Assembly (NCBI GenBank): GCA_026713705.1
Contig: JAPONY010000081.1
Location: 431-64,430 of the forward strand
Source of the DNA: Gammaproteobacteria bacterium
Lineage (GTDB): Bacteria > Pseudomonadota > Gammaproteobacteria > Poriferisulfidales > Poriferisulfidaceae
Length of the DNA stretch: 64,000 nucleotides
Direction of reading: 5' to 3'
Both the position numbers and the translations under genes were made by a program. Positions 9,876 through 35,624 of the stretch are shown in pieces; position 1 is the stretch's first letter; each line of letters begins with the position of its first letter. Under the pieces are notes generated by a model that searched no databases, was not told the DNA's origin, and saw only the letters and a list, made by a program, of their open reading frames with translations.

Positions 9876-9912
9876 TATAATAGCGCGCCCAAATAAAATC
9901 ACGATTATTTGG
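9876..9912 (+). promoter_or_regulatory. candidate -10 box (TATAAT) and perfect 8-bp inverted repeat upstream of the Panacea antitoxin gene
   Basis: TATAAT at 9876-9881. CCAAATAA (9889-9896) and TTATTTGG (9905-9912) are separated by 8 nt. This is either an operator or a 5'-UTR hairpin. No convincing -35 box. Confidence 0.35.
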
Positions 9913-9932
9913 ATTTGTTAGGGGGAAAAATA

Positions 9933-10370
9933 ATGGGCGTACAGGCGATTGATGTAGCCGACTACATTCTTAAAAATCTTGGCACAATGCCCGCCATGAA
10001 ACTCCATAAGCTTGTCTATTATTCTCAGGCTTGGTCTCTTGTGTGGGATGACAAGCCCATTTTCCATGACCGGATTGAAGCATGGGCAAATGGCCCGGTT
10101 ATCCGGGCCTTGTATAACAAACACAAAGGAAGATTTCGCATAGGCAGCATTAAGGGTGCCGAATGGAAATTGCTGAACTCTGAACAGCGCGAAACCATTG
10201 ATGCTGTTCTCGATCACTATGGTGACAAATCTTCACAGTGGCTCAGTGATTTGACTCACATGGAGGCCCCGTGGCAAGAAGCACGAGCAAAAGCGAGTCT
10301 TGCCAGTGGACAACGTGGAAACGCATGCATCACTCATGCATCTATGGCTGAATACTACTCTGCTTTGTAA
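9933..10370 (+). CDS. Panacea-domain (DUF4065, SocA-like) antitoxin
   Basis: Start at ATG 9933 (GGGGGA SD). 'MKLHKLVYYSQAWSLVWDDKPIFHDRIEAWANGPVIRALY' is the DUF4065 signature as I recall it. Confidence 0.75.
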   Translation: MGVQAIDVADYILKNLGTMPAMKLHKLVYYSQAWSLVWDDKPIFHDRIEAWANGPVIRALYNKHKGRFRIGSIKGAEWKLLNSEQRETIDAVLDHYGDKSSQWLSDLTHMEAPWQEARAKASLASGQRGNACITHASMAEYYSAL

Positions 10371-10819: not shown

Positions 10820-11025
10820 ACGGCTCACACCGTCAACTTCCTGTATGCAATAGTCTCGCCGATCATCGCCCGGGTCGGGTCGCCACTATTAGTGCTTGCA
10901 TGCCATTCGCGGATTTTTCAGCCCGGTGGACTCCCTGGAGAAAGAATTCCCGCGCCATATATCCTAAAATGCGGGAAGTTATTGACTTTCCGGCCTGCTG
11001 TGCCGGGGAAATCCGACCGCCTCCC

Positions 11026-12999
11026 ATGCCTGCCTGCTCGACCGCCTCTTCTCCTCAAGCCCAGATATTCCCCGTGCCTGACGCGACAGCGAAAGCGGCA
11101 CTGATCGACCGGGCCGGCTATCTCGAGAACTACCGCCGCTCGATCGAGGACCCGGAAGGATTCTGGCTGGAACACGGCCGAAGGCTTGATTGGATCCGGC
11201 CCTACACGCACATCCGGGACGTCTCCTACGATGCGCCCGACCTGCACGTCCGCTGGTTCTACGACGGCAGCCTGAACGCCTGTTACAACTGCGTGGACCG
11301 CCATCTCGAATCGCGGGGAGACCAGGTCGCCATCCTTTGGGAAGGCGATGAACCGGACCGAGACAAAGCCATCACCTACCGGGAACTGCATCAACAGGTC
11401 TGCCGCTTCGCCAACGGGCTCAAGGCGGCCGGGGCTCAAAAAGGCGACCGGATCACCATCTACATGCCGATGATCCCGGAGGCGGCCGTAGCCATGCTGG
11501 CGTGTGCGCGGATCGGCGCCATCCACTCCGTGGTGTTCGGCGGCTTCTCGCCTGAAGCGCTGGCGGGACGCATCCGCGACGCCGACAGCAGCATGGTCAT
11601 CACGGCCGACGAGGGCGTACGCGGCGGCAAGCGGATTCCGCTCAAGGCGAACGCCGATCAGGCCGTCGAAGCCTGTCCCTCGGTCAAACACGTCGTGGTC
11701 GTCCGCCACACCGGCGCGGAGATCGCGTGGAGCGAAAGTCGCGACCTTTGGGCGCACGACCTGGCCGCGCAGGTCGACGACGACTGCCCCCCGGAAGAAA
11801 TGGCCGCGGAAGACCCGCTGTTCATCCTCTACACCTCGGGCTCCACCGGCAAGCCAAAAGGCGTGCTGCACACTACCGGCGGCTACCTGGTTTACGCCTC
11901 GATGACCCACCAGTACGTGTTCGACTATCACGAAGGCGAGATCTACTGGTGCACGGCCGACGTCGGCTGGGTGACCGGGCACAGCTACATCGTGTACGGC
12001 CCGCTGGCCAACGGCGCCACCACCCTGATGTTCGAAGGCGTACCGAATTACCCGGATGCCTCCCGTTTCTGGCAGGTCTGCGACAAGCACCAGGTCTCCC
12101 TTTTCTACACCGCGCCCACGGCCATCCGCGCACTGATGCGCGAGGGCGAGGAGCCGGTGCGCCGGACTTCTCGCAAAACACTCCGCGTGCTCGGCACGGT
12201 CGGCGAACCGATCAACCCGGAAGCCTGGCTGTTCTACCACCAGGTCATCGGCGACGGCCGCTGCCCGGTGATGGACACCTGGTGGCAAACCGAGACGGGC
12301 GGAATCATGATCACTCCCCTGCCTGGCGTTACGGATCTGAAGCCGGGCTCCGCGACCCGCCCCTTTTTCGGGATTCGCCCGATCCTCGTGGACGCCGAGG
12401 GAAATGAAATAGAAGACGCCGGCGAAGGCAACCTGTGCATCGCGGACAGCTGGCCCGGGCAGATGCGCACGGTCTACGGCGACCACCAGCGATTCATCGA
12501 CACGTATTTCGCCACCTATCCCGGACGCTACTTCACCGGCGACGGCGCCCGCCGGGACGAAGACGGCGACTACTGGATTACCGGCCGAGTCGACGACGTG
12601 ATCAACGTCTCGGGGCACCGCATGGGCACCGCCGAGGTGGAGTCGGCCCTGGTCGCGCATCCACAGGTGGCGGAGGCGGCCGTGGTAGGCTTCCCCCATG
12701 AAATCAAAGGGCAAGGGATCTATGCCTATGTCACGCTGATGGCCGGACTGGTCCCGGACAAGGAGCTGCGGGATACCCTGAGCGCATGGGTGCGCCAACA
12801 GATCGGGCCGATCGCGCGGCCGGACTTCATCCAGTGGGCGCCGGGGCTGCCGAAGACCCGTTCCGGCAAGATCATGCGCCGGATCCTTCGCAAGATCGCG
12901 GCCGACGACTACGCGGAACTGGGCGACACCTCGACGCTGGCCGACCCGGCCGTGGTCGACGACCTGATCGAGAACCGCATGAACCGGGCTTCCGCATGA
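11026..12999 (+). CDS. acs: acetyl-CoA synthetase
   Basis: '[19 protein letters not shown]', 'WWQTETGG', C-terminal '[18 protein letters not shown]'. Start taken at ATG 11026 (657 aa); the longer ORF from 10735 overlaps the upstream toxin gene. Confidence 0.95.
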
Positions 13000-18084: not shown

Positions 18085-21000
18085 TCAAATGCTTTCAGTG
18101 GCAGTTTGCCTGAAACGGGAATCATGCAACCATTCTGCAGACAGAACTTCCGCCTGCTCCAATACTGTCCGCGTCGCTTTCTCCTGCTTGTCTGGCGGAT
18201 AGCCGTGTTTTCTCAGTATCCGTTTGACCAGCAAGCGCAACTGTGCCCGCACGCTCTCGCGCACGGCCCAATCAACAGTGACGTTGTTCCGCACAGCCTC
18301 AACCAACTCGCAAGCAATGGCGCGCAACGTTTCATCCCCCAGCACCTGAACCGCACTGTCATTGGCGCCAAGCGCATCGTAGAAGGCTAGTTCATCCTCC
18401 GTCAGCCCCAATTCTTCACCACGGGCGTTCGCCGCGCGTATGTCGCTTCCCACCTGAATCAATTCCCCGATTACTTCCGCGACTTCAACCGACCGATTGT
18501 GGTACTTGCGAATGGTCTGCTCAAGCATCCGGGCGAAAGAGCGCGCCTGCACGATATTCTTTCTCCGTTGCCTGGAGATTTCGCCTTTCAGCAACCGCCG
18601 CAGCAATTCGACCGCCAGATTGCGTTGCGGGAGGTCGCGCACTTCGTCGAGAAAGGCATCCGACAGAATGGAGATGTCGGGTTTCTTCAGGCCGGTGGCA
18701 TCGAAGATGTCGATGATTCCCTCGGAAAGCACTGCCCCCGAGACGATCTGCCGCACGGCATAATCCAGAATTTCGTCGGGTTCCGCGTCAGAAGACCCGT
18801 GTTTGACCAAAGCGATGCGAACCGTCTGGAAAAATTCCAGATCATCGCGAATGGCGAGCGCCTTTTCATTCGGCACTGCAAGCGCGAAGGCTCGCGAGAG
18901 ATCGCTCGACGCAGACACGAAACGGGTCTTGCCGTCCTCCTGCTTCAGGACATGATCCAGCGCAGCGGGCAGCAATTCCAGCCGCTCCCGCTCTTTTGAC
19001 GAGGTCCAGACCGAATAATCGAAGCCATGAAACAGGTCTCGACAGATCTCATATTTCTCCAGCATCACGGCGACTGCATCTTCCTGATCGAGAGCAGGCT
19101 GTCCCTCATCCTTGCCCTCGGTATAGGTTTTCGTCGCATGCTTGAGTTCGTGAGCCAAACCCAGGTAATCGACGACCAAGCCACCCGGCTTGTCTCTGAA
19201 GACCCGGTTGACCCGGGCGATCGCCTGCATCAGACCGTGACCGCGCATCGGCTTGTCGATGTACATCGTATGCAGGCTCGGCGCATCGAAACCCGTCAGC
19301 CACATGTCACGCACCAAGACGATCTGAAACGGATCATCGGGATCCCGGAAGCGGATCGCCAGCTTCTCACGGTGAGGCTTGGCTCGAATATGCTCCTGCC
19401 ATTCTGGCCCATCGGAAGCGGAACCGGTCATGACCACCTTGATCTTGCCTTTGCCATCATCTTTCGCACACCAATCCGGACGAAGCTTCGACAATTCCTG
19501 ATAGAGATCGACGCAGATACGCCGACTCATGCAGACGACCATCGCCTTGCCTTCCATGGCTTCGAGACGATGCTCAAAATGCTCAACGATGTCGCGCGCC
19601 ATGTGCCTAATCCGCTTTTCGGCGCCTACCACGGCCTCCAGTTGTGCCCACTTGGTCTTTAGCCGTTCCTTATGCTCGGTTTCTTCGCCTTCGGTCACTT
19701 CCTCGAAGTCCGGGTCGATCTTCGGACGCTCCTTCTCGTCAAGTTCCAGCTTGGCCAACCGACTTTCATAATAGATCGGCACGGTCATTTTGTCGTTCAC
19801 CGCCTGCTGGATATCGTAGACGCTGATGTAGTCCCCAAATACCGCGCGTGTGCTGGCATCCGCGATTTCTATCGGCGTACCGGTAAAGCCCACGAAGGAG
19901 GCATGCGGCAGGGCGTCGCGCAGGTGCCGTGCGAAGCCATCGATGAAGTCGTATTGGCTGCGATGCGCCTCGTCGGCAATGACCACGATGTTGCTTCTCT
20001 CCGAGAGAATCGGGTGCCGGTCGCCTTTTTCCTCTGGAAAGAACTTCTGGATGGTGGTGAAGATCACGCCGCCGGACTCGACGGACAGTTTGGCGCGCAA
20101 ATCAGCCCGGCTCTCGGCCTGGGCCGGTGCTTGACGCAGCAGATCCTGGCAGCGGGTGAAGGTTCCGAACAGCTGATTGTCGAGGTCGTTGCGGTCGGTC
20201 AGCACGACGAGGGTCGGATTCGTCATGGCGGGCTCCCGGACGATGCGCCCGGCATAGAAAGCCATGGTCAGGCTCTTCCCCGCCCCCTGGGTGTGCCAGA
20301 CCACTCCGATTCGACGGTCTCCCGCCTTGGTCGTTCTCCCGGCATAGTCGTGTTCATGTGCGGCGGTTCGGTACTGCTGTTGCAATTCGGCGGCGCGCAG
20401 GGTTTCGAATACGGCTTTTCCGACTGCGTAGAACTGATGGTAGCCCGCTACCTTCTTGGCCAAGGCGCCTCCGCCGTCATCTTCGAACATGATGAAGTCC
20501 CGCAGGAGCGAGAGGAAGTTTTCTTTCTTGAAGACTTCGTAGATCAGCGTACGAAGCGACAGACGAGGCTCTATTGCGAGCTCTCCACCGTAGTCCATGC
20601 GCCAAGGCCGGAACCACTCCCACCCGGCGGTCAGCGTTCCGATCTTCGCCTCGATTCCGTCGGAGACAACCAGCAGCTCGTTCATGGAAAACAGCGTTGG
20701 CAGTTCGGCCTTGTAGGTCTGGAGCTGTTTCCAGGCACTGTGCAGAGTGGCCCCTTTGTCTGAGGGACTCTTGAGTTCGATGATCGCCAACGGAAGACCG
20801 TTGACAAACACCACGAGGTCGGGGCGCCGCTCGTGTTTGTCCTCAATGACCGTAAATTGATTCACCGCAGACCAGAAGTTGGCGTCGGGATCGTCGAAGT
20901 CGATCACCCGCGCCTGTGCGCCGCGAACCGAATTGTCCTCGGCCCGGTACTCCACCGTCACCCCGTCCACCAGCATGCGGTGGAAGTTCCGATTTCGCGC

Positions 21001-21246
21001 TTCCAGGGTCGCCCCTTCCAGTCGGATCAATTTGCGGCAAGCCTCTTCCGCAGCAGCTTCCGGGAGTTCGGGATTGAGCTTCCGGATCGCGGTATGCAGT
21101 ACGGAAGTCTCGGTAACCTCCGAATAATCAGGATGCGGCGAGAGGGAACGAGCTAACATTTTCTCCCTTCCGTCAACGCTGTATTCCATGCGCCGGAGCC
21201 AGTCGATGACCGTCTCTTCCACGATCGATTCGGTAATCAAGGGCAT
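18085..21246 (-). CDS. hsdR: type I restriction enzyme, R subunit
   Basis: 1053 aa. Walker A '[11 protein letters not shown]', DEAH box '[11 protein letters not shown]', an N-terminal PD-(D/E)xK region ('[17 protein letters not shown]') and a C-terminal helical domain. Confidence 0.95.
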
Positions 21247-21250
21247 CCGC

Positions 21251-21940
21251 CTATCCTTTCTTCCCGATCGGAGACAGATTCTCCAAACGCGTCAGCCATT
21301 CGTTGAAGTGATGGCATTCTGCACGAATGCGATCCAGTCCGACCCGGCGGGCGATGGCAATGCCGTGAACCACCTTGTTATAGGGCGGATGCGATAGAGA
21401 TTTAAGCCGAGCCGAAGGGTGGGTCGCCGGACCGTCATCGATATGTTCGGGACTTTGGGCGCCACGCCGGGCTCGTTGCATCTCTTCCGAATGCCCGGAC
21501 CACATGTCCTCCGTCTCGGCGATCTTCGTGGCATCGGAAAACAGCAGCGCTTCAAATTCATACGGCTGTATGTGTGGGAAAAAGCGGTCCGCCCGACACT
21601 CCGCCGCCTGGACGACCACCCTGCGGAACTCGGCCTCGATGGCGGCAGCACGGTCAAGCGGGTCGCGTCGCAAAGCAGATTCGGCCCGGCCTGGGAAATC
21701 CGACGGCAATCCGTACAGGTCGAACAAAGTGGTGACGTAGGTGTCCTTACGGCCGCGCAAAAGCGACCGAAGCGACCGCAGCACCCGCTGACGGGTCAAG
21801 GCACCACCCGCATGTCCCGAAGAAGTCGCGATCAGTCTCGGTTTGACAAGCACGGACCGGTCCAGCATGGGGTGGTAGAGAATTTCGTTCAGGAACGCTT
21901 CTTCGGTCCGGCCTTCGCAAACAGCGATCACCTCGATCAT
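21251..21940 (-). CDS. DUF4276-like (Toprim-like) protein
   Basis: Start taken at ATG 21940, which forms an ATGA overlap with the upstream ATPase stop. The N-terminus '[21 protein letters not shown]' matches the DUF4276 'EG.TE' signature as I recall it. Confidence 0.65.
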
Positions 21941-23034
21941 CGGCTCAGGCAACCGCCGAAAGTATTCATTTTCCACAAATCACCCAAGGTGTATTCATCC
22001 TCTTCCAGCCAGACCTGCAAATCTTCCCTATTCAGCCGGTCGAACAAGGACTCTCCATTCTCGCGGTTGACCACGACGATGTCTTCAGGGTCCATCTCGC
22101 TGACAAGATCCGCGGACTGTGTTGTGACGATGATTTGCCGAGTTTCACTCGTGCTTTTGAGCATGTCGGCCACCAAGGCGATTGCACGCGGATGGAGGCT
22201 CAACTCCGGCTCGTCGATGAGCATCAGTCCGGGCGCGAAATGATCCGGCTGGAGCAACACGGTCGCCAGTCCAATGAAACGCAATGTCCCGTCCGAGAGT
22301 TGCCGCGGTCCAAGCGTCATTTTGGAATTCCCTGCATGAAGCCATTCCAGTTCCACGTATTCTTCCTTGCCTTCGCGATAGATGAAGTCTTCCAGAAAAG
22401 GGGCTACATGCCGCGTCATGGTGATGATCTGCCGGTAATGGTTCGGATATCTTTCGTTCAGATGCCGCAGAAATGGAACCAGATTGCTTGCATCCGAATG
22501 CAATTCGAGGTTGTCGCGAGTCTCTCCCGCGCTCCGCATTCCCGATTCCCTGCTGGTATCGCTCAGGTGATACGAGCGCCAGCCCGCGACAGCCTCCCGT
22601 AAGTAGCCGGAAAAGCCATCCTCTTCCCGTGCACCAATCTCTTCAAGCCTCGATTCGTCATGGCCTCCGCCAAGCGAATGGGCGACGGAGTCCCTTTCGT
22701 CCAGAGTTCTTGCTTCCTCTTCCTTGAAAACAAGGCGTTCACCATCCGGCACGAGAACAAACCGATAGGCGTTCTTGCCGAATGTGATCTGTACCTCGAT
22801 CTCCCGGGTGGCGTTCACTCCATCGTGCAGAATGGTTTTGGGCCTGTTGCCCAGAGCGACAAACATCTGAAGGCGCTTCTCGGCCACGCACCTCAACATC
22901 CGGAACAGGTCGATGAAATTGCTCTTGCCCGCCCCGGCGGGACCGATCAGGACATTCAGGGGCCTCAACTCGAATTCTTCGAGGGCACGGATGGACTTGA
23001 AGCCGCGGATGGTGAGGTGGGTCAGTTGAGGCAT
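21937..23034 (-). CDS. ABC/SMC-like AAA ATPase (AAA_21/AAA_23 type)
   Basis: 'LTIRGFKSIRALEEFELRPLNVLIGPAGAGKSNFIDL' (Walker A) and 'LMLIDEPELSLHP' (Walker B/D-loop). Confidence 0.85.
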   Translation of the reverse strand: MPQLTHLTIRGFKSIRALEEFELRPLNVLIGPAGAGKSNFIDLFRMLRCVAEKRLQMFVALGNRPKTILHDGVNATREIEVQITFGKNAYRFVLVPDGERLVFKEEEARTLDERDSVAHSLGGGHDESRLEEIGAREEDGFSGYLREAVAGWRSYHLSDTSRESGMRSAGETRDNLELHSDASNLVPFLRHLNERYPNHYRQIITMTRHVAPFLEDFIYREGKEEYVELEWLHAGNSKMTLGPRQLSDGTLRFIGLATVLLQPDHFAPGLMLIDEPELSLHPRAIALVADMLKSTSETRQIIVTTQSADLVSEMDPEDIVVVNRENGESLFDRLNREDLQVWLEEDEYTLGDLWKMNTFGGCLSR

Positions 23035-23046
23035 AGTGGCAAAAAA

Positions 23047-24525
23047 TTAGGTTTTGTCTTCTAGTGAATCATCTTCGAGACCACTGTAGAGTAATTCTAA
23101 ACACTGCACCGAATGCACAAACCCGATTCCAGTCCTATATGGGGTTGTGGTTCTTTCCAGCAAACCGTCAACATAATAGATCACATCTTCTGCCCGGGGC
23201 GCATCAGGGAAATCTGGTGTTGCGCCCTTTTCCGCGGATTGAGCCCATATTCTGTACTTCTTCATAAGCGGCGTTTCGATTTCATCATCACGAGAGCCTG
23301 AAACTTCGTAACAAGCAAGAACGACCACTGCTTCAAACAAGTTGCTTTTTTTCTCTTCCCTAATATCGTTTGCCCCTGAACGAGAAAACACCGCATCAAC
23401 GACTTGCTCGTCCGAAGCCTCTCCCCGGATAAACCTATGGTACAGATCGGCATTGATTGTCCTAAGGATTAAAGCCACGACCGCCGCCATAGCAGCTAAT
23501 CGATGTTTGCCCCGTAGCGAGGCAAGCACCAATCCAAGACGGTGAATGGCCTGTGCGATGCGTCGAAGACTAAGGTCGGAGGATTTAAAGAAAACCTGAA
23601 AAAAAGTAAGGGCATCTTCATAGTTCCACATCTCACTCCTTTGGGTTCGCTGAAAATAGTCAGGAACACATGCTGCTCTAAGCGACACATCGATAAATGT
23701 GTCACGTTCTGGCTCAGGAAGCTGAAAGTCAATGTCGAAAAAACGGCGCAAGTAGTCTTCCGCATCAAATCCACTGCCGTACAACCCCTTGATTGAATGT
23801 CCCAATTGGTCACGATTGATTGCTAGAACAAACACCACGTGATCTACTGAAAACAAGTGCTTGGCAACTTCCAAGAGTTCAACTGCATAAGAGGGGCGGC
23901 ATCTGTCCAACTCGTCTATCATTATTACGAGGGGGTGTTCGCGTTCTTCCGACAATACTTTCGCCATATCCTCCAAGACGACTCTAAACTCCTTGACCGA
24001 CTCCTGAGCTTTTTCATAAACCGACAGCCTGTCTTCAGCATAGGAAGTAAGAATTTGAGCCACCTCCTCCTTTAGCAACGGCGCGACATCCAAAAGACCC
24101 ATGGCGGCCCGAATTAAACCAGGGGTGACCCATCGAACGATTTCCGTTGCCACCTTTTTAGTTTCGTTGATCTTTTGGGTCAGGTCGGTCTTTTCCCCCG
24201 GTGGGCTAGTTGTATATTCCTGCAGCCCTTTCATCAGTTCTGCGGAAAGGGTTACTAATGGCTCATTGGAAAAATCCGTTTCCCATGCATTGAACTTGAC
24301 CAAAGGAAATTTCCGATTGAGCAAATGCTGTGCCCACATATTAAGGAATGTGGTTTTTCCGTTTCCCCATGCGGCATCGACAGCCAAAACGCAGGGGCCC
24401 TCAAATACATCAATCAGGCGAGTGAGCACCTCTGCCGATTCTTTTCGCCCAAGAAGATCGTTTTGGAATGGATCGTCTTGCGGCACATCAATTTCTCGAG
24501 GCTGTATGCGTATTGCCTTACCCAT
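23047..24525 (-). CDS. KAP-family P-loop NTPase
   Basis: 'DDPFQNDLLGRKESAEVLTRLI', Walker A 'AAWGNGKTTFLNM', Walker B 'LVIMIDELDRCRP'. I see no strong transmembrane insert. Confidence 0.85.
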   Translation of the reverse strand: MGKAIRIQPREIDVPQDDPFQNDLLGRKESAEVLTRLIDVFEGPCVLAVDAAWGNGKTTFLNMWAQHLLNRKFPLVKFNAWETDFSNEPLVTLSAELMKGLQEYTTSPPGEKTDLTQKINETKKVATEIVRWVTPGLIRAAMGLLDVAPLLKEEVAQILTSYAEDRLSVYEKAQESVKEFRVVLEDMAKVLSEEREHPLVIMIDELDRCRPSYAVELLEVAKHLFSVDHVVFVLAINRDQLGHSIKGLYGSGFDAEDYLRRFFDIDFQLPEPERDTFIDVSLRAACVPDYFQRTQRSEMWNYEDALTFFQVFFKSSDLSLRRIAQAIHRLGLVLASLRGKHRLAAMAAVVALILRTINADLYHRFIRGEASDEQVVDAVFSRSGANDIREEKKSNLFEAVVVLACYEVSGSRDDEIETPLMKKYRIWAQSAEKGATPDFPDAPRAEDVIYYVDGLLERTTTPYRTGIGFVHSVQCLELLYSGLEDDSLEDKT

Positions 24526-24536
24526 TTTTCAACTCG

Positions 24537-26123
24537 TCAAATTGTTGTGCCGGGGCGCCCAATACCTTTCGTCTGAATTTTCCCAGAAACAAGTCCAGGC
24601 AATAGCGTATCTCTCAAAAAGGATAAGAGGTGGGTTTCTGATGTGCCATTCCTGATACGTTTATCCAATGTATTGACTTGACTGTCGAACGCGTTAATAA
24701 CTTCTGCCGTAGGTTCCAGAACTCGAAGCGCTTCAAATTGTTGCTTGTTTATTGATCCAAACACTGTTCCCGTGTGTTCGTATTGGCGAAACTGCTTCTG
24801 GATAGCCCACGCCGAATAATATGTGAACGAAACTGAGCCAGATCTATGTCGTAAAGCTGCTACTCCACGGCCAATACAACATTTTTCCCAAGCCATGTTT
24901 ATATCTCCTACCGGGGCTCTAACACTGACGAGCGTGTCTCCCGGCTGAGCGGTTCGCTTGGGGGCAGTACAAAATTTCCTTTTCTGGGGAAACCTGAACT
25001 CAAAATCAGAACTTCCCTGAAAGAAAGGCAAGCCATCAGCGTGTTCGTTGTAGGTGTTCCCAGAAGGGGATTGCCCCATCTCAAGATCAAAGGTATCGGC
25101 AAGATTTCGAATGCCCCACCCCTCCGGGACATCCCCTAGCTCAGATTCCGCTAACCGGTCAGGGAAAAGATTGGCAATGTGCTTTGGCAATCCTGTATCG
25201 CGGTTTTCCATTTTTGCGCGAACCGGATCAAAATCAACGAACCAGGATTTGAACAACGCCCGAGCCATTTCTTCCAAGGTTTCGTTCATGCGGCAGTTTA
25301 ATTCAATCTTATCGTCCAGCGTACCCAGTACATCTGCAATGGCACGTTGTTCAATTAGGGAAGGCAGGCGTATACGAATACTCCCTAATGCTGACCCTGA
25401 AAGTTCACCGAATGTCGTCCCTGTTGTGTATTGTTTTAATTTCTCAGTGTTTTGAATAAGCCAATAATACAGGTATTCAGACGGAAATCCTTCATGCGGC
25501 ACAAGTGAACGAAAGCCTTGGTTAGTAGAAATTGGATTCTTTGCGATAGCCACATAACCAACTGGCGCTCGGGTAGAAAGCAGTACAGATCCGCTCGGCA
25601 AAAGTTTTGCTGAAGAATTTTCTAGCCCTTTTTGTGACAGGCTTCTCTCTCCGCAAGTGATATATCGGGCATGTGGTTCAGACAGGTCTTTCGGCGTCAA
25701 CCACGGAATGTTCCCCCCAAAGTTATCTGGATCTTTCGTCGAAGGAGTGCCTCCCCCTACGATATCGGCAATTTGCTCGATTGTGTATTCATCCCAATCG
25801 TTTTCTTTTTCGGAAGAATCTACTAAATTTATGCGTTCTCCCTCAATCTGCTCTCTAAACGATTCCGGGACCTCGTCCCAGACGAACAAATCCACCCTGA
25901 ACGGCAAGTCGCTTTCCTCGAACGCTTCCCGGAGGTCGCCAACCCGGTCTTTCTGTTCTGGAGACGCAAACGCCACCAAATCAAGGTCGGATTGCGGACG
26001 GGAAGTCCATTTCACGCGGGAACCATAGGCCCAGACGGCCACCCCCGGCAGATACTGTTGAATTAAAGCCAGAACAGTCTTGCGCTGGCTAGATGTAATG
26101 TCGATGGCCTGCTCTATTCCCAT
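24537..26123 (-). CDS. hsdS: fusion protein: minimal nucleotidyltransferase (MNT) domain + type I R-M specificity subunit HsdS
   Basis: Start at ATG 26123 (GGGGAG SD). Residues 1-~105 carry 'GS-x10-DLD' and 'VDLFVWDE' (MNT). An uninterrupted frame then runs into a two-TRD HsdS: 'IVGGGTPSTKD', central 'LPSLIEQRAIADVLGTLDDKIELN', distal 'LLSFLRDTLLPGLVSG'. Confidence 0.85.
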   Translation of the reverse strand: MGIEQAIDITSSQRKTVLALIQQYLPGVAVWAYGSRVKWTSRPQSDLDLVAFASPEQKDRVGDLREAFEESDLPFRVDLFVWDEVPESFREQIEGERINLVDSSEKENDWDEYTIEQIADIVGGGTPSTKDPDNFGGNIPWLTPKDLSEPHARYITCGERSLSQKGLENSSAKLLPSGSVLLSTRAPVGYVAIAKNPISTNQGFRSLVPHEGFPSEYLYYWLIQNTEKLKQYTTGTTFGELSGSALGSIRIRLPSLIEQRAIADVLGTLDDKIELNCRMNETLEEMARALFKSWFVDFDPVRAKMENRDTGLPKHIANLFPDRLAESELGDVPEGWGIRNLADTFDLEMGQSPSGNTYNEHADGLPFFQGSSDFEFRFPQKRKFCTAPKRTAQPGDTLVSVRAPVGDINMAWEKCCIGRGVAALRHRSGSVSFTYYSAWAIQKQFRQYEHTGTVFGSINKQQFEALRVLEPTAEVINAFDSQVNTLDKRIRNGTSETHLLSFLRDTLLPGLVSGKIQTKGIGRPGTTI

Positions 26124-26530
26124 GTCTCCCCGCTCATGGCCTGATAGAGTCCGATGGCATCGTCGATAAAATCGGGTATCAATTCCAAGCAGGCTTTTGC
26201 CTTCTTGCCATCGTAGTCGTGCGAGGTGTCGACGCGGGCTTTGACATAGCGAAACCATTGCTCTATCGGAGCAGCGAACAAGCCGTTCTCGCAAGCTGAT
26301 CTGAAAAGAGGCTTCGGACTGTTGGGTAGATCCGCCATGCCCATCTCTTCAACCAAGTACCGTTTCAGCACTTTCCACAGGCAGTCATAGCAAACCTCAA
26401 ACCGCTGAATGACCGATTCGGCCACGGCATCGCGCACCAAGGCTGGCAACTCCGGGTCCAACCCCAAGTGGTTTTCATGCTGTTCCTCCAGGCGCTTCAA
26501 GGATGACCGGAATTTTGAGAAATCAATCAT
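26114..26530 (-). CDS. HEPN-domain protein (HI0074-type nucleotidyltransferase substrate-binding subunit; putative RNase toxin)
   Basis: 138 aa, helical, with the Rx4H motif 'RVDTSH'. It overlaps the MNT-HsdS start by 10 nt. Confidence 0.8.
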   Translation of the reverse strand: MIDFSKFRSSLKRLEEQHENHLGLDPELPALVRDAVAESVIQRFEVCYDCLWKVLKRYLVEEMGMADLPNSPKPLFRSACENGLFAAPIEQWFRYVKARVDTSHDYDGKKAKACLELIPDFIDDAIGLYQAMSGETWE

Positions 26531-26569
26531 AATCGCGTCCTCTTGACAATTTGGGGGAATCCTGTCCTA

Positions 26570-26815
26570 TCAGTTGGATGCCCGAAGGAGCGCGAGAGCG
26601 CTCACCGCATCATCGGCAATCGACGCATCTTTATTCTGCGGAGAAAACTCTTGATGCCGCCCTTCCCAACTATAGGCTGCACGATCCAACTGTACCCGAA
26701 CCACCTTTGCGCGCTCCGACGACACATCATCGAAACCGTTCTCGTAGCCCTGCACAACCACCCGTAGTTCCGGCGGATAGCCTTCAAGAAGGCGAATGAG
26801 TTCCTCGACAGTCAT
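26570..26815 (-). CDS. small hypothetical protein (81 aa)
   Basis: The internal ATG 26815 of ORF 26570..27076 forms an ATGA overlap with the hsdM stop. Begins '[27 protein letters not shown]'. No family recognised. Confidence 0.5.
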
Positions 26816-28428
26816 TTGCCACCATACCCCAGCGCCTTCATGTTGTCTGCGATGCGGGCATCCAGTTTTGCAGACTCTGCTTGCTGTTCCTGCAACTGTG
26901 CGACTAGCCGGTCCATTTTCTGCTCGAACGGCTCGTCGTCTTCCTCCGGCTCTTCCCATCCAACATAACGGCCAGGGGTAAGTATTCCATCGTGCTTGCC
27001 CACTTCGTCCAGCGATGCACTCTTGCAAAAACCGGGGATATCGACGTAACCGTTCTCCTTCTCCTTGCCGCGCCAAGCATGGTAGGTGCCTGCAATGCGC
27101 GCAATGTCTTCCTCGGCGAAATCCCGATGGGTGCGATCCACCATGTAACCCAGTTTCCGTGCGTCGATGAAAAGGATCTCGCCCCGCCGGTCGCGGAACC
27201 TGCCATTGCTGCGATCACGGGCCAGAAACCACAGGCACGCCGGGATCTGGGTCGAGTAGAAGAGTTGGCCCGGCAGCGCGATCATGCAATCCACCAGATC
27301 CGCTTCTATCAAACCCCTGCGAATGGCGCTCTCCGCTGATTGACCTGACGACATCGATCCGTTGGCCAACACGAAGCCCGACATGCCGGTCGGGCTCAGA
27401 TGATGGACGATGTGCTGCACCCAGGCAAAATTGGCGTTCCCTTTAGGGGGGATGCCGTATTTCCATCGCTTGTCGTCCGTCAGGCGCTCGCCTCCCCAGT
27501 CGGAGATGTTGAACGGCGGATTGGCCAGAATGAAGTCGGCCTTGAGACCAGGGTGCTGATCGTCGTGGAAGCAGTCTCCCTGGGAGATCTGGCCTTCAAT
27601 GCCGCGGATCGCCAGATTCATCTTCGCGAGACGCCAGGTCGTGTAGTTCAACTCCTGCCCATAGACCGCAATGTCCGCCTTGGCGCCGCGAGGCGTTTTC
27701 CCTCCATTGCCGTTTCCGGTCGCATGGGCGCGTATGAACTCGACCGACTGCACGAACATGCCCGACGAGCCGCAGCAGGGATCATAGACGCGGCCCCGGT
27801 AGGGCTCCAACATCTCCACCAGCAACTTCACGATGCAGCGCGGAGTATAGAACTCACCACCTCTCTTGCCTTCGGCGCTTGCGAACTGGGACAGAAAATA
27901 TTCGTAAATCCGCCCCAGCACGTCACGGGACCGGGCGTTTTCGTCACCCACCTTGATGTTGCCGATCAGGTCGATGACCTGACCCAGCCTTTGCTTGTCG
28001 AGAGATTCGCGCGCATAGTCCTTGGGGAGCACGTTCTTGAGCGACGTATTCTCCCGCTCGATGGCATCCATCGCATCATCGACATGCTTGCCGATCTCGG
28101 GTTGCCGCGCCCGCTCCTGAAGGTATGGCCAGCGCGACTCCCGCGGCACCCAAAAAATATTTTCCGCCACATATTCGTCGCGGTCTTCCGGGTCATGGCC
28201 TTCCGATTCCTTGTCTTTCAGGAATGCGCGCTTCTCCTCGAATGCGTCGGACACGTACTTGAGGAAGATCAGACCGAGCACCACGTGCTTGTACTCGGAC
28301 GCATCCATGCTGCCCCGCAAGGCATTGGCCATGTCCCACAGCTCGGCCTCATGGCCGATCACCGCGCCATTATTCTCCCGGCTCTTCGCCGAACCCTGTC
28401 GCTTCTTTTCCGGCTGCTTCCGCGCCAT
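26812..28428 (-). CDS. hsdM: type I restriction-modification system, M subunit (N6-adenine DNA methyltransferase)
   Basis: Start at ATG 28428 (AAGGAG SD). '[32 protein letters not shown]' (HsdM N-terminal domain), motif I 'DPCCGSSGM', motif IV 'NPPF'. Confidence 0.95.
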
Positions 28429-28505
28429 GGTCGGATTCTCCTTTCGCGTAAGGATCGATGGCGGATGCGTTGTAGCCGACGGCATGCATCCACCATCCTT
28501 TGCAT

Positions 28506-31932: not shown

Positions 31933-32307
31933 CTATTGATGGGGAAAATACTTGACGTTCGTCAAATCCTTGAAGTCGGCATCCTGCGTCCACAGCGTGG
32001 CCTCATGCCTGCGTGCGGTCGCATAAATGATGCTGTCCGCCAAAGGCAATTGGTATTCGATTCCGAAAACGGCGGCATCCACTGCCAGCCTTTCGTCCAG
32101 GACGACAACCCTCCCCTGCTCCATATGCGCAATAGCTCGCAGGGCGGCCTCCTCTCCTCTTTGGCGCTGGATATTCTTGAACACCTCAGTCAGGGTGATG
32201 CTGGGAACCAGCAGTTCCCCCAGACTGCCTATGGGAGCCGCAAAGGATTGCGCGTTCGGGCCGTCGGCAAAGTAGGACAACCAACCGGACGAGTCGACTA
32301 CGTTCAC
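31933..32307 (-). CDS. vapC: PIN-domain ribonuclease toxin VapC
   Basis: 'VVDSSGWL' N-terminal acidic motif, 'LADSIIYATA' and 'TQDADF' PIN residues. 4-nt overlap with the upstream antitoxin gene. Confidence 0.85.
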   Translation of the reverse strand: MNVVDSSGWLSYFADGPNAQSFAAPIGSLGELLVPSITLTEVFKNIQRQRGEEAALRAIAHMEQGRVVVLDERLAVDAAVFGIEYQLPLADSIIYATARRHEATLWTQDADFKDLTNVKYFPHQ

Positions 32308-32510
32308 AGGCGATCTTCATCCCGCTCTACATGGGTGTCGATGCCTTTCAGAAATCCCCTCAGGTTCTCCAGCGGCTCTATGGGAATCAATTGTATCTGG
32401 TCGCGGCAACGGATCATCTGGATTTTCTGTCCCGGCACGATCCCGCTCGACTCTCGGATTTTTTTAGGAATCACAATCTGATATTTTGGCGAAACGGTGA
32501 CGGTGGCCAT
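32304..32510 (-). CDS. vapB: AbrB/SpoVT-family antitoxin VapB
   Basis: 'VTVSPKYQIVIPKKIRESSGIVPGQKIQM' swapped-hairpin motif; AGGAG SD. Confidence 0.85.
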   Translation of the reverse strand: MATVTVSPKYQIVIPKKIRESSGIVPGQKIQMIRCRDQIQLIPIEPLENLRGFLKGIDTHVERDEDRL

Positions 32511-32573: not shown

Positions 32574-32619
32574 ACAGCGTGTATCGAGTCGTCCCTGAAG
32601 TATTCATAATAAGTTGATT

Positions 32620-32739
32620 TTATTGACTTAAAGCCGCATCCATACTGCCCCGCAAAGCATTGGCCATCTGCCACAACTTAGCCTCATAGCCAATAGTTGC
32701 ACCATTGTCAACTGGTTTTTCCTTTTGCTTTCGCGGCAT
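32620..32739 (-). pseudogene. N-terminal fragment (39 codons) of a second type I R-M hsdM gene
   Basis: The minus-strand translation is [39 protein letters not shown]. It aligns with the resident HsdM N-terminus '...[30 protein letters not shown]' and stops right after GSMDA. Confidence 0.7.
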
Positions 32740-32875
32740 ATCACGCTTCCATTATTTTCCCGCGCCTCTGCGAGACCTCTCCGAACCTAACAAGCAGCCC
32801 TACAATTGGGGGTGAAAATCACTTTATGCCAAGATCAGGGATGTTGTTTACACAGAACAATAAAAGTTCAAATCC

Positions 32876-33640
32876 TTATGCGGCAAGTTTTTCTTGCATT
32901 TGCTTACGACTGGACCATAAAACCGGAGACACATCATAATTACGAAGGGCGCTCAGAACATTCTCCGAAATTGTTTGTTCCGAGTCATTTAGGATCGCGT
33001 AGGCATGGGCATCCGAGGCGCGTGTTTCCTTTATGTCTGTCCAAGAAAATATCACTGACTGCGCCGCATCTCTGTTAGGACGATTGATCGCGCGCAGCAC
33101 TCGTTCCGGTTTGGTTTCTGATTTTGGGATAACAAAATCGAAACGATGATCATAGCCGCTTTTGCCAGTAAACTTAACACTAGGTGTATACCGAATCCTC
33201 GCACTATCTAACCAGACCGTCACATCTTCATTAAACAAGCTAGCGACTGTGGGTGAAGCTAAATAAAACAGATCGTTAATAGCAAGCATTGCCTGCACAA
33301 GGTTATGTTTCCTCAGAGCAAAATCGTTTTCTGACGCCCGTATTTCAAGTGCCTTTCCTTTAGCCTCTACACCAAATCCCTTGAGCGTTGTCTTGAAAAG
33401 AATCTGCCGCCTCGGACTATCTATGCTGCAACCAGACATTTCTAAATCTTCCACGATATGTCCGTCATCTGTCAGCACATACCCGTTGCCCTCGCGCTTA
33501 GCAAAAATTTGAAGGCAGTCATTGTGCCGATCCAAATAAGGTGTGGTGATTTCTACGAAATCGTCAATTTGGCGAAGGCTCGTCCGGTCCCGCAACCATT
33601 GTAAGTATTGGTCGATCTGTGACTGCATATCTTCAATCAT
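32876..33640 (-). CDS. DUF1828 + DUF1829 domain protein
   Basis: Start at ATG 33640 (ATGA overlap with the upstream gene stop). '[41 protein letters not shown]' is DUF1828-like and '[33 protein letters not shown]' is DUF1829-like. The gene is AT-rich. Confidence 0.65.
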
Positions 33641-34083
33641 GCCAGCAACCCTCTTTGAAAGATTGGCGGTTCGGTAATATTGCAAAATCGCATAAAGTCT
33701 TCAAGAGTTTTCAGAGGGTCGTCTAGATTGGAAAAATGTTCGCCTGGAACTGGGAAGGCCCACTTATCACCATATCCCTCACGATAGAGATGAAGGTGCA
33801 ACGGTCCAATTTCTTCACCATCTGGATTCCGGTGCGGTGCGCCACCAAAATCAAGTCTTGCCAGAATCACGGTCTGGCGAGCTCGATTCTGGTATGTGCC
33901 TTTGATGAGGTCAACGCGCGCTCGCCGCAAATCAAGAGAAAACGTCTCGTGGCGATCCGCTGAAACGAGTGGAACCATTATGCGTCCCGTAGGAGACGGA
34001 TAATCGTATCGGGTTTCGTCGACCCGGTGTTTTTCCATTTCTATTAGCGAATCCGCTTCAATTTGTGTAAGGCTTGTTTCCAT
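33637..34083 (-). CDS. hypothetical protein (148 aa) with an 'HRNPDG...HLHLY' His cluster
   Basis: GGAAGGGG SD. A clean AT-rich ORF 113 nt downstream of nuoN and translationally coupled to the DUF1828/1829 gene. No family named with confidence. Confidence 0.6.
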
Positions 34084-34196
34084 AGAGTAAGCCCCTTCCT
34101 AGAGCACTTCTATTGGTTGGGATGGCGCTTCTCAATCCACAAGTGTGATCGCCGTGCTGCGTAGTGTATCCACCTGCCCAAGCCTCCGCAAATCCC

Positions 34197-35624
34197 TCAC
34201 TGCCCGCCGACAAAAACCCCCGCTGCCCTCTGGCTCATCTCCAGCCAGGGCTGCGGCACCGCGAAAATAACGACCAGCACCAGCGCATTCGCGCTGACCA
34301 GGAAGACATGAGTCAAATCCTCCCCGGGCTCGGCGGGACGCTCCGCCTCCTCGAAGTACATGTACCAGACGATGCGGAGATAGTAGTAGGCGCCCACCAC
34401 CGTCAGCAGCACCGCCGCGACCGCAAGCGGCCACAGCCCGGCCTCGACCACCGCCTGCAGCACGTACAGTTTGGCGTAGAACCCGGCGGTCAGCGGCACG
34501 CCCGCCATGGAAAACATCAGGATCAGCACCATGATCGCCAGCCAGGGATGGCTGTGGTTCAGGCCCTTGAAGTCCTTGATGTCCTCGGCCGTGGTCCGGG
34601 CGTTGAGCAACAGCAGCATGCCGAAGCTTCCCGCGGCCATCAATGCATAGACGAGGGTGTAGAAAACCGCCGAACCCATCCCCTTCGGAGACCCCGCGCA
34701 CAGCGCCAGGAACACGAAGCCGGTGTGGGCGATGGCCGAATAGGCCAGCATCCTCCGGATCCGGGTCTGCGCGATCGCAACAAGATTGCCGAGCAGAAGC
34801 GACAGGACCGCCAGCGCCATCATCAGGGTCGTCCAGTCGGCGGCCAGGGCCATCAGGCCGTCGCCGAACAGGCGCAGCAGGAGCAGCAACCCGGCGATCT
34901 TGGGGGCGGCCGACAGGTACGTCGCCGCAGGCAGGGAAGAACCGTCGTAGACGTCCGGCAGCCACATGTGGAACGGCGTGGCGCCCAGCTTGAACGCCAG
35001 GCCCGCCAGCATGAATACCGTGCCGAGCAACAGGATCCGATTCGTCTCCATCTGTCCCAGTCGTTCTGCCAACTCTCCGATGTGCAGAGTGCCGGTCGCT
35101 GCATACATCAGCGACATCCCGTACAGGAGAAAACCCGAAGCCAGCGCCCCGAGCACGAAATACTTGAGCGCCGCCTCGCCGGCACGACCGTCGTCGCGCA
35201 CCATGGCGATCATCGGGTACAGCGACAGGGCAAGGATTTCCAGTCCCATGTACAGCGCGACCAGATGTTCCGCGCCGCTGATCAGGAACATCCCAACGCA
35301 TCCAAATGTCGCGAGCGTATAGAACTCGTTGGACTGGAGGCGATCGGAAGAAACCGGGTACCCCCGGGCGTACCGGAGGACCAGCACGGTCAGCACGCAG
35401 ATCAGGATGCGCAGGACATCCACCTCGGCGGAACGTTCGAACATGCCGCTCATCAGCAGGATCGGGGCGTCCGGCGCGGTCGCGAGCATCGCGCCCACCG
35501 CCGCCGCCAGCGTCAGCATCGTGAGCGGCCAGGCCAGCGGCCGCGGACACAGCAGGATAAAGCAGGCGCCGACGACCAGCACGATCTCCGGCAGCATCAG
35601 GATCATTTCCTGCGCCACGCTCAC
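34197..35624 (-). CDS. nuoN: NADH-quinone oxidoreductase subunit N
   Basis: 475-aa polytopic ND2-family protein; last gene of the nuoA-N array. Confidence 0.9.
   Translation of the reverse strand: MSVAQEMILMLPEIVLVVGACFILLCPRPLAWPLTMLTLAAAVGAMLATAPDAPILLMSGMFERSAEVDVLRILICVLTVLVLRYARGYPVSSDRLQSNEFYTLATFGCVGMFLISGAEHLVALYMGLEILALSLYPMIAMVRDDGRAGEAALKYFVLGALASGFLLYGMSLMYAATGTLHIGELAERLGQMETNRILLLGTVFMLAGLAFKLGATPFHMWLPDVYDGSSLPAATYLSAAPKIAGLLLLLRLFGDGLMALAADWTTLMMALAVLSLLLGNLVAIAQTRIRRMLAYSAIAHTGFVFLALCAGSPKGMGSAVFYTLVYALMAAGSFGMLLLLNARTTAEDIKDFKGLNHSHPWLAIMVLILMFSMAGVPLTAGFYAKLYVLQAVVEAGLWPLAVAAVLLTVVGAYYYLRIVWYMYFEEAERPAEPGEDLTHVFLVSANALVLVVIFAVPQPWLEMSQRAAGVFVGGQ

Follow-up and report, generated by a model that had tools for sequence, protein, structure and literature searches.

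A catalogued PDC-M24 gene pair bordering a defence island of a sponge symbiont: genomic contexts, asymmetric decay and conserved residues of a candidate toxin-first module

Embedding within known defence loci has guided the selection of new candidates, and 145 such candidates, the PDCs, were chosen for their embedding in BREX, DISARM or type I restriction–modification (R–M) loci ("guilt-by-embedding") and entered PADLOC for future study, none of them being reported as tested (Payne, Hughes, Fineran, Jackson; 10.1101/2024.01.29.577857). The same preprint cites PrrC as the archetype of R–M-embedded defence, and its text gives neither PDC-M24 by name nor a mechanism for that pair (10.1101/2024.01.29.577857). 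Other described proteins also bear on the family. TumE (DUF6516) has two helices on a seven-stranded antiparallel sheet, has no neighbour in the PDB and inhibits translation, and its TumA partners are for the most part hypothetical proteins predicted to bind DNA, one of them being a remote RelB homologue (PMC10584680). Ntox24 is an all-beta domain with conserved Tyr, His and His residues, predicted to be a metal-independent RNase and found also in toxin–antitoxin (TA) systems (Zhang et al., PMC3482391). Here, we describe two overlapping genes, A and B, located at positions 32876–34083 on the minus strand of a 64,000-nt stretch of contig JAPONY010000081.1 (hereafter the window) from a gammaproteobacterial assembly (GCA_026713705.1). 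They almost certainly constitute a horizontally acquired 1.4-kb copy of PDC-M24, intact and constrained, that borders a defence island in the genome of a sponge symbiont.

PDC-M24 is a two-gene entry of PADLOC-DB v2, predicted because of its embedding in type I R–M operons, and both proteins of the window align with its profiles. Protein A belongs to Pfam DUF6978 (E 3.8e-43, 147.4 bits, gathering cut-off 29.6) and matches PDC-M24A (PDLC04538) with E 1.5e-54 and 182 bits, its residues 4–145 covering positions 2–143 of the 146 in the profile. Protein B carries DUF1828 (E 1.4e-26, 93.1 bits, cut-off 22) and DUF1829 (E 9.5e-34, 116.2 bits, cut-off 22.2), two domains that a preliminary description of this DNA had assigned correctly, and matches PDC-M24B (PDLC04539) with E 1.6e-105 and 350 bits over residues 5–254 (profile positions 4–255 of 255). 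The adjacency that defines the entry is likewise present, the two genes being co-directional with a 4-nt overlap. NCBIfam holds no model for either protein and PHROGs only families of "unknown function", and homologous clusters at 90% identity amount to 3,395 for A and 7,183 for B, both far beyond chance; the best 150 matches of the representative search were all ordinary family members. The preliminary description had proposed a candidate two-component TA or anti-phage module with no assigned function. The PDC-M24 match, the synteny of the pair and its R–M and prophage lysogeny contexts support this proposal, and no test of a function is reported in the literature searched. The family is catalogued yet uncharacterised, and since it already stands in the PADLOC catalogue, it is less new than had been supposed.

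The gene organisation was read on the minus strand and agrees with the preliminary description in its two co-directional genes of 148 and 254 codons placed 113 nt after nuoN, in the overlap between them, in their AT-richness next to the GC-rich nuo genes and in the peptides quoted from both proteins. Gene A (33637..34083, minus strand; DUF6978/PDC-M24A by open reading frame (ORF), Pfam and PADLOC) is the proposed toxic effector. Gene B (32876..33640, minus strand; PDC-M24B by the same three sources), with DUF1828 at residues ~20–127 and DUF1829 at ~150–250, is the putative neutraliser or sensor or, alternatively, a nuclease effector. The plus-strand TCAT at 33637..33640 corresponds to ATGA on the coding strand, so that the TGA of A overlaps the ATG of B, an arrangement conserved across homologous loci. 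An alternative TTG start at 33685 would extend B to 269 aa; 18 of 20 aligned homologues begin at the "MI" of the ATG. A Shine–Dalgarno (SD)-like AAGAGGG lies ~10 nt before this ATG, within the 3' end of A. Upstream, nuoN (34197..35624, minus strand) ends 113 nt before the ATG of A, leaving a leader (34084..34196, minus strand) that travels with the cassette and contains an SD-like GGAAGGGG at 34099–34092, 8 nt before the ATG. The last 110 nt of this leader (34084–34194), beginning 3 nt past the nuoN stop, are conserved in the window, in a sister genome (L185) and in a third copy (L186). The leader also holds a weak possible promoter, TTGCGG-17 nt-TACACT, a pair to which the consensus scan gave no score; scanning for sigma-70 promoters and terminators returned no more sites than in shuffled sequence, and none upstream of A.

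The limits of the acquired segment could be drawn from these relatives. The L186 copy, at 87% nucleotide identity (blastn), shares exactly window positions 34194–32795 and nothing else, amid an unrelated context of insertion sequence (IS) elements and an AbiE system, and because the match is confined to this interval, it defines a transferable unit of ~1.4 kb (32795..34194, minus strand) composed of the leader, A, B and ~80 nt of 3' flank. A block of low GC content coincides with this unit, with values of 0.44–0.49 over 32600–34000 (~45%) versus 0.61–0.70 in the nuo genes. In L185, the cassette occupies the same site, with 95.8% nucleotide identity over nuo, A and B. The ratios of nonsynonymous to synonymous substitution rates (dN/dS) were 0.17 for A and 0.21 for B against L185, and 0.15 and 0.11, respectively, against L186; with values of 0.11–0.21, both genes are therefore under purifying selection.

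The linkage of A and B was followed in three sets of loci. For the B-chosen set, a B alignment was compared with species-representative genomes, yielding 80 loci at 61–73% identity in more than 12 phyla, which span Gamma-, Alpha- and Betaproteobacteria, Nitrospirota, Nitrospinota, Acidobacteriota, Binatia, Chloroflexota, Planctomycetota, Bacillota, Kiritimatiellia, Chlorobi, Spirochaetia and Elusimicrobia, among others. A full-length A lies directly upstream of B in 58 of these loci, and the two genes share a 4-nt NTGA overlap in all but one of them (57/58: ATGA in 48, GTGA in eight, TTGA in one). Selection by A led to the same neighbour: B adjoins A in each of the 23 assessable contigs of a viral set (24 loci, identity down to 31%), and is present at every locus with room for it in a metagenome set of 80 contig loci from the Joint Genome Institute (JGI), of which 64 could be assessed for damage to B. 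The distance matrices of the two proteins show a correlation of r = 0.95 (Mantel p <= 0.001), which is 0.73 when the cellular set is taken alone. Synteny of the pair, which the preliminary description had named as one of the points on which its proposal could fail, therefore holds almost without exception, and the two genes are conserved together as a bicistronic pair in the manner expected of TA systems. The conserved NTGA overlap would imply translational coupling and a fixed stoichiometry of A and B, as far as gene arrangement can indicate.

Departures from this organisation were found among the more divergent members. Divergent viral loci have a gap of 30–70 nt instead of the overlap, and in four viral contigs (L094, L098, L100 and L104) A and B are convergent, which may represent a subtype with different regulation or chemistry. 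Additionally, a tandem divergent pair or a B-like gene precedes an ordinary B in L080 (8733–9964), L014 (9129–9914) and L013 (7766–8431); the tandem copies, A' and B', show 30% and ~20% identity, respectively, B' starting with "MN..EL..S.GRSLP.LF.C". Given these tandem divergent copies, PDC-M24-type cassettes can form arrays inside R–M operons. Many of the closest B homologues, distributed over many phyla, derive from metagenome-assembled genomes (MAGs) named like sponge symbionts (Porisulfidus; bins SB0677, RHO1 and APA), and the window itself comes from a sponge metagenome, which suggests exchange of the cassette across phyla within the sponge habitat.

The genomic positions taken by the family fall into two preferred slots. 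Type I R–M genes occur within 10 kb in 58 of the 80 B-chosen loci, all on the strand of the cassette and in the order hsdM-hsdS-[A-B]-hsdR, and no R–M genes were found within that distance in the remaining 22; R–M genes also accompany 36 of the 80 A-chosen metagenome loci, despite the short contigs. Distant copies of the pair, at 26–31% identity, are carried by temperate phages of Staphylococcus, Streptococcus and Lactobacillus. In the Lj965 prophage and in S. aureus phage 37, a CI-type repressor and the integrase flank the pair, which adjoins a superinfection-exclusion gene (sie) in Lj965. By hhalign (probability 98.7 and 98.5, respectively), the small upstream ORFs of these two phages are related to DUF6978, and they keep the H-x-N-x-DG...H-x-H-x-Y motif. 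Both the hsdS–hsdR slot and the repressor–integrase slot are classical positions of defence genes.

The two genes do not decay alike. Among the 80 B-chosen loci, A is absent from nine, reduced to a truncated or 3' remnant in about nine, interrupted by stop codons in two (L026 and L051) and frame-shifted in three (L004, L011 and L033), amounting to 21–23 losses depending on how frameshifts in long-read assemblies are counted. In the P0225 and P0213 database proteins, the presumed catalytic region of A is deleted and B is intact. Of the positions invariant among B proteins that have their partner, 97.9% are retained in the orphan ones. Conversely, B is damaged in just two of the 64 assessable A-chosen loci (L121 and L142), even though it is 1.7 times longer than A (Fisher's exact p 1.4e-4 to 1.7e-5). 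From 21–23 of 80 versus 2 of 64, the simplest reading is that selection acts against A when B is missing, whereas B by itself is tolerated or useful. Read in this way, the sequence pattern would be the one that a toxin (A) and its neutraliser (B) leave behind. The remnants of A always retain its 3' end, the region containing the ribosome-binding site of B. In six loci (L014, L019, L021, L025, L039 and L044), only the last 25–50 codons of A survive ("..DFM.FC..VEPP.I.RGLFT"), just upstream of B (~9900–10000), and in L019 this remnant is fused in frame to an unrelated upstream ORF. Recombination appears to have taken place repeatedly within A in these loci, exchanging its 5' part and leaving B and the ribosome-binding site of B untouched.

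Protein A, a small alpha+beta protein, exhibits a conserved cluster of polar residues on a fold for which no neighbour of known function was found. Its AlphaFold2 (AF2) model is confident (predicted local distance difference test, pLDDT, 90.9; predicted template modelling score, pTM, 0.87) and comprises a helix at residues 7–15, about 8–10 mostly antiparallel strands and a second helix at 123–133. Foldseek against the PDB returned only PH-domain and DDB1 noise (best E 0.04, template modelling score (TM) ~0.2), and against BFVD a single uncharacterised phage protein; sequence profiles of A and of B gave no match in the PDB. In homologues with as little as 27% identity, H84, N86, P87, D88, H96 and F130 are invariant and K18, R67, R76, D78, H98, Y100 and E102 nearly so. 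The His-rich block singled out in the preliminary description corresponds to the family signature itself, H84-x-N86-P87-D88 ... H96-x-H98, in which H84, N86, D88, H96 and H98 are invariant or nearly so and to which K18, R76 and E102 may be added; the conserved K18, R76, H84, N86, D88, H96 and H98 are polar and of a catalytic type. By its residues, the cluster looks like an active or metal-binding site, metal binding being plausible. An HNH or His-Me-finger reading of the PHRNPDG...HLH segment was considered and dropped, having found neither structural nor profile support.

Weak domain matches fall on the same region. Lax Pfam matches to Ntox24 (PF15529) occur in 30 of 75 A homologues, at best with E 0.008 and at 13–17 bits against a cut-off of 24, and in 5 of 34 members of a more diverse set, covering A residues ~62–112, that is, the His region. 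The window A itself has no match, and the best score in the family (16.9 bits) lies under the gathering cut-off. Protein A has a beta core bearing Y64, H84 and H96/H98, residues that might correspond to the Tyr, His and His of the Ntox24 description, to which the family gives sub-cut-off matches only. For DUF6516 (TumE), no match was obtained at E <= 10 among the 75 and 34 homologues. Longer A homologues (~200–310 aa) contain no informative extra domain except a partial 8xMP match in P0345, and P0334 runs into a partial DUF1828 match; the apparent A–B fusions P0225, P0213 and P0334 were rejected as frame-shifted or deleted A sequences read through into B.

Protein B was modelled as two domains (pLDDT 90.5, pTM 0.55). 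The C-terminal domain (~150–250) is predicted to adopt the alpha-beta-beta-beta-alpha-beta core of restriction endonucleases (REases; PD-(D/E)xK), and Foldseek matched B to VC1899, Card1, Can2 and Cdn1 at probability 1.0 (E 8e-5 to 5e-4), to XisH (2inb; TM 0.64, root-mean-square deviation (rmsd) 3.7 A, 123 columns) and further to NucS, Kpn2I, MspJI, McrC and Bax1. The canonical (D/E)xK was not found in B, in which the position two after E179 is V, I, L or F and K173 is variable. Most members retain D168 and E179, and likewise N186 and the N218–D219 pair; H and Q take the place of D168 and E179 in L098 and L100, and the B' proteins lack the E179–R180 segment. The strongest conservation is found in the N-terminal DUF1828 (T33, P34, D37, H39-N40-D41, D58, G60, Q116 and D123), which is modelled as an antiparallel meander (strands 21–57) with helices, and not as a Rossmann-like CARF domain. 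No helix-turn-helix (HTH), ribbon-helix-helix or AbrB domain was detected in A or B, and the REase-fold domain of B could, judging from its model, bind DNA.

Taken together, these features lead us to a tentative reading, given slightly less than an even chance, in which the pair is a toxin-first, TA-like abortive-infection module with A as effector and B as neutraliser or sensor. Protein A would be a toxic enzyme, with H84-x-N86-P-D88 ... H96-x-H98 as its active site; a nuclease or RNase that attacks nucleic acid of the host or of the phage would be the likeliest kind. Protein B would bind A and hold it off, with its REase-fold C-terminal domain and conserved DUF1828 acting as the sensor, and a phage cue would free A; in R–M-embedded relatives, this cue could be a phage attack on restriction. 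The NTGA overlap and the location of the B ribosome-binding site within the end of A may ensure that A is not made without B. The comparisons above establish the family to which the pair belongs, its linkage and co-divergence, its contexts, folds and conserved residues and the asymmetry of decay; the toxicity of A, its neutralisation by B, the trigger and the anti-phage activity are what we infer here. The points that speak for A as the toxic part are the asymmetry of decay, the polar invariant residues, the weak Ntox24 matches and a B without canonical (D/E)xK.

Several considerations weigh against this assignment. The sets compared for decay differ in origin (species-representative genomes, many of them sponge MAGs, versus JGI metagenomes), each is conditioned on an intact focal gene, and a few of the A frameshifts may be assembly errors. 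Because A has no structural neighbour of known function, its enzymatic nature is argued from conserved residues alone, and the Ntox24 matches, sub-cut-off and drawn from related sequences that are not independent, provide a lead and not membership. Protein B is large for an antitoxin, lacks a recognisable HTH and has a fold typical of defence effectors, in which D168 and E179 are mostly conserved. As the window cassette stands outside an R–M operon, a trigger based on guarding R–M cannot simply be assumed here. In the literature searched, there was no mention of "PDC-M24" and no experiment on any family member. A more specific elaboration is rather unlikely, namely that DUF6978 is a toxin, probably a nuclease or RNase, of undescribed fold with a His-based site (H-x-N-P-D ... 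H-x-H), held by a catalytically degenerate REase-fold sensor, that A–B in its native slot between hsdS and hsdR is a second-line defence acting when a phage disables type I restriction, and that orphan B is kept as immunity against an incoming toxin.

The roles could also be reversed, B being a PD-(D/E)xK-fold nuclease effector regulated by its DUF1828 and A a small sensor, activator or specificity subunit, such that B would cut phage or host DNA after A detects infection. Among the effectors of defence systems, those with an REase fold are the most common, and the C-terminal domain of B matches Card1, Can2, Cdn1, VC1899, NucS, XisH, Kpn2I and MspJI. Conservation of D168 and E179 in most members, and of N186 and N218–D219, would fit an active nuclease, and the persistence of B without A would fit an effector that is inert by itself. 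However, the (D/E)xK lysine is missing and K173 is unconserved, D168 and E179 are jointly replaced in the convergent L098 and L100, the B' proteins dispense with E179–R180 altogether, and conservation peaks in the N-terminal and not in the nuclease-fold domain. A harmless A further predicts that loci combining an intact A with a broken B are no rarer than the opposite, against the 2 of 64 versus 21–23 of 80 observed. We regard this reversal, the main rival, as possible but rather unlikely.

Two further explanations rank as less likely than both the toxin-first module and the reversed roles. The pair could be a selfish TA cassette that stabilises the R–M islands and prophages carrying it and gives no phage protection, as would suit a 1.4-kb unit of TA-like architecture moving among unrelated contexts and phyla, in which the orphan B copies could serve as anti-addiction immunity genes. 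This seems improbable for a cassette that occupies slots of proven defence, between hsdS and hsdR and between repressor and integrase beside sie, a pattern of embedding that has repeatedly predicted real defence systems (10.1101/2024.01.29.577857); besides, TA and defence roles are compatible. Slightly more improbable still is an accessory of R–M, in which A and B do not stand alone but modulate the type I enzyme in whose operon they usually lie (perhaps restriction alleviation or hsdR activity) and the post-nuoN copy is a leftover of a decayed operon. The 58 of 80 loci within R–M operons would agree with it, together with the relics that follow B, of hsdM in the window and of the hsdR 3' end in L185. 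Against it, R–M genes are lacking within 10 kb in 22 of 80 loci and are not associated with the phage copies or with L186, and purifying selection has acted on the cassette here and in L185 while the adjoining R–M parts decayed.

The surroundings of the cassette document this decay. Going downstream along the minus strand, nuoN, A and B are succeeded by an hsdM relic, vapB, vapC, two DUF2799 lipoprotein genes (on the opposite strand), an AAA_14/DUF4143 ATPase gene and a type I R–M operon. Directly 3' of B lies the 5' relic of a second hsdM (~32739..32620, minus strand; ~36–39 codons), which aligns with the N-terminus of the intact HsdM (28485..26812); its place after B is unusual, relatives usually having hsdM upstream of the pair. 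It is followed by an independent neighbouring TA pair with a MazE/AbrB-type antitoxin, VapB (32510..32304, minus strand), and a PIN toxin, VapC (32307..31933, minus strand). VapBC and the hsdM relic had both been correctly placed beside the cassette in the preliminary description; to this picture are to be added an intact 557-aa HsdM and a complete R–M operon located 4.4 kb further on (18085..28485, minus strand). This operon encodes HsdM, a nucleotidyltransferase (NTase) fused to HsdS, a KAP NTPase, an AAA_21 ATPase, DUF4276 and HsdR, and in itself carries embedded modules, namely the NTase fused to HsdS, the KAP NTPase and the AAA_21 ATPase with DUF4276. The window copy does not lie between hsdS and hsdR: the cassette stands upstream of the operon, with vapBC, the two lipoprotein genes and the ATPase gene in between.

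A different arrangement follows the pair in L185, where a 129-aa HsdR C-terminal relic is found directly 3' of it, then an orphan gene, a single DUF2799 gene and a resistance–nodulation–division (RND) pump. The HsdR fragment and the orphan (L185 10888–12256) are 76% identical to the hsdR and orphan of the window, and vapBC and the entire R–M operon are missing, the island having been rebuilt differently around a conserved A–B. From the hsdM relic in the window and the hsdR relic in L185, it follows that the pair was kept in both lineages and that the R–M parts decayed differently, and the two relics suggest, from sequence comparison, that the window copy was once joined to an R–M operon. Around the L186 copy (3896–6298 and 10948–11892), we observed an IS605 OrfB/TnpB-like gene, an AbiEi/AbiEii pair and a DDE transposase, which fits a mobile defence islet. 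An 11-nt inverted repeat bracketing the window cassette (32752–32762 and 34260–34270; 10 of 11 positions complementary) was set aside as probably due to chance, because one arm falls inside the nuoN coding region.

PDC-M24 is an abundant family, with thousands of 90%-identity clusters in more than a dozen phyla and in temperate phages of staphylococci, streptococci and lactobacilli, and as one more instance the window copy brings nothing new. What makes the candidate readily testable is the comparison, by way of the more frequent loss of A, its invariant His/Asn/Asp cluster, the non-canonical nuclease site of B, the two preferred slots and a defined mobile unit. Were the toxin reading true, the family would define a fold new among toxins and would join PrrC as the second case of defence backing up type I restriction; were the second-line role between hsdS and hsdR also true, the pair would be a two-protein analogue of PrrC.

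Compared with the catalogued entry, this copy has the same gene order and adjacency as PDC-M24 and matches its profiles nearly end to end, in a family that is embedded in type I R–M loci; it differs in lying outside the R–M operon, 113 nt after nuoN and beside the hsdM relic alone. PrrC, the anticodon nuclease encoded between hsdS and hsdR in EcoprrI, silenced by the R–M enzyme and freed by a phage anti-restriction peptide, occupies the slot that the A–B family takes, co-directionally, in 58 of 80 loci. However, there is no sequence or domain similarity between them, A–B consists of two proteins and is found also outside R–M (in phages and solo islets), and the copy in the window is not embedded. 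With toxin-first type II TA and abortive-infection modules such as higBA and hicAB, the pair shares two overlapping genes with the small protein first. The model of A resembles TumE by description alone, and B differs from TumA in its 254 aa, its REase fold and its lack of an HTH.

The best structural matches of B, namely Card1/Can2/Cdn1 and VC1899 (6xl1, 7bdv, 9u49 and 1xmx), share with it the plan of an N-terminal regulatory and a C-terminal REase-fold domain; on the other hand, the whole-protein TM against B is 0.32–0.40 with an rmsd of more than 10 A, and B has no ExK. In contrast to the CARF effectors, the N-terminal domain of B is DUF1828 and not CARF, and no type III CRISPR genes lie near the cassette. 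A further comparison, made by domain annotation, concerns HipAD/DS-6 (DefensePredictor, PMC13092281), the only validated defence system with a DUF1829 domain in the literature searched, which combines a HipA-like kinase with DS-6B, a protein carrying DUF3037 and DUF1829. In HipAD, the toxin is a kinase and not a DUF6978 protein, and its partner has DUF3037 instead of DUF1828; the likeness is that DUF1829 resides in the non-toxic partner of the toxin, which is the role proposed here for B.

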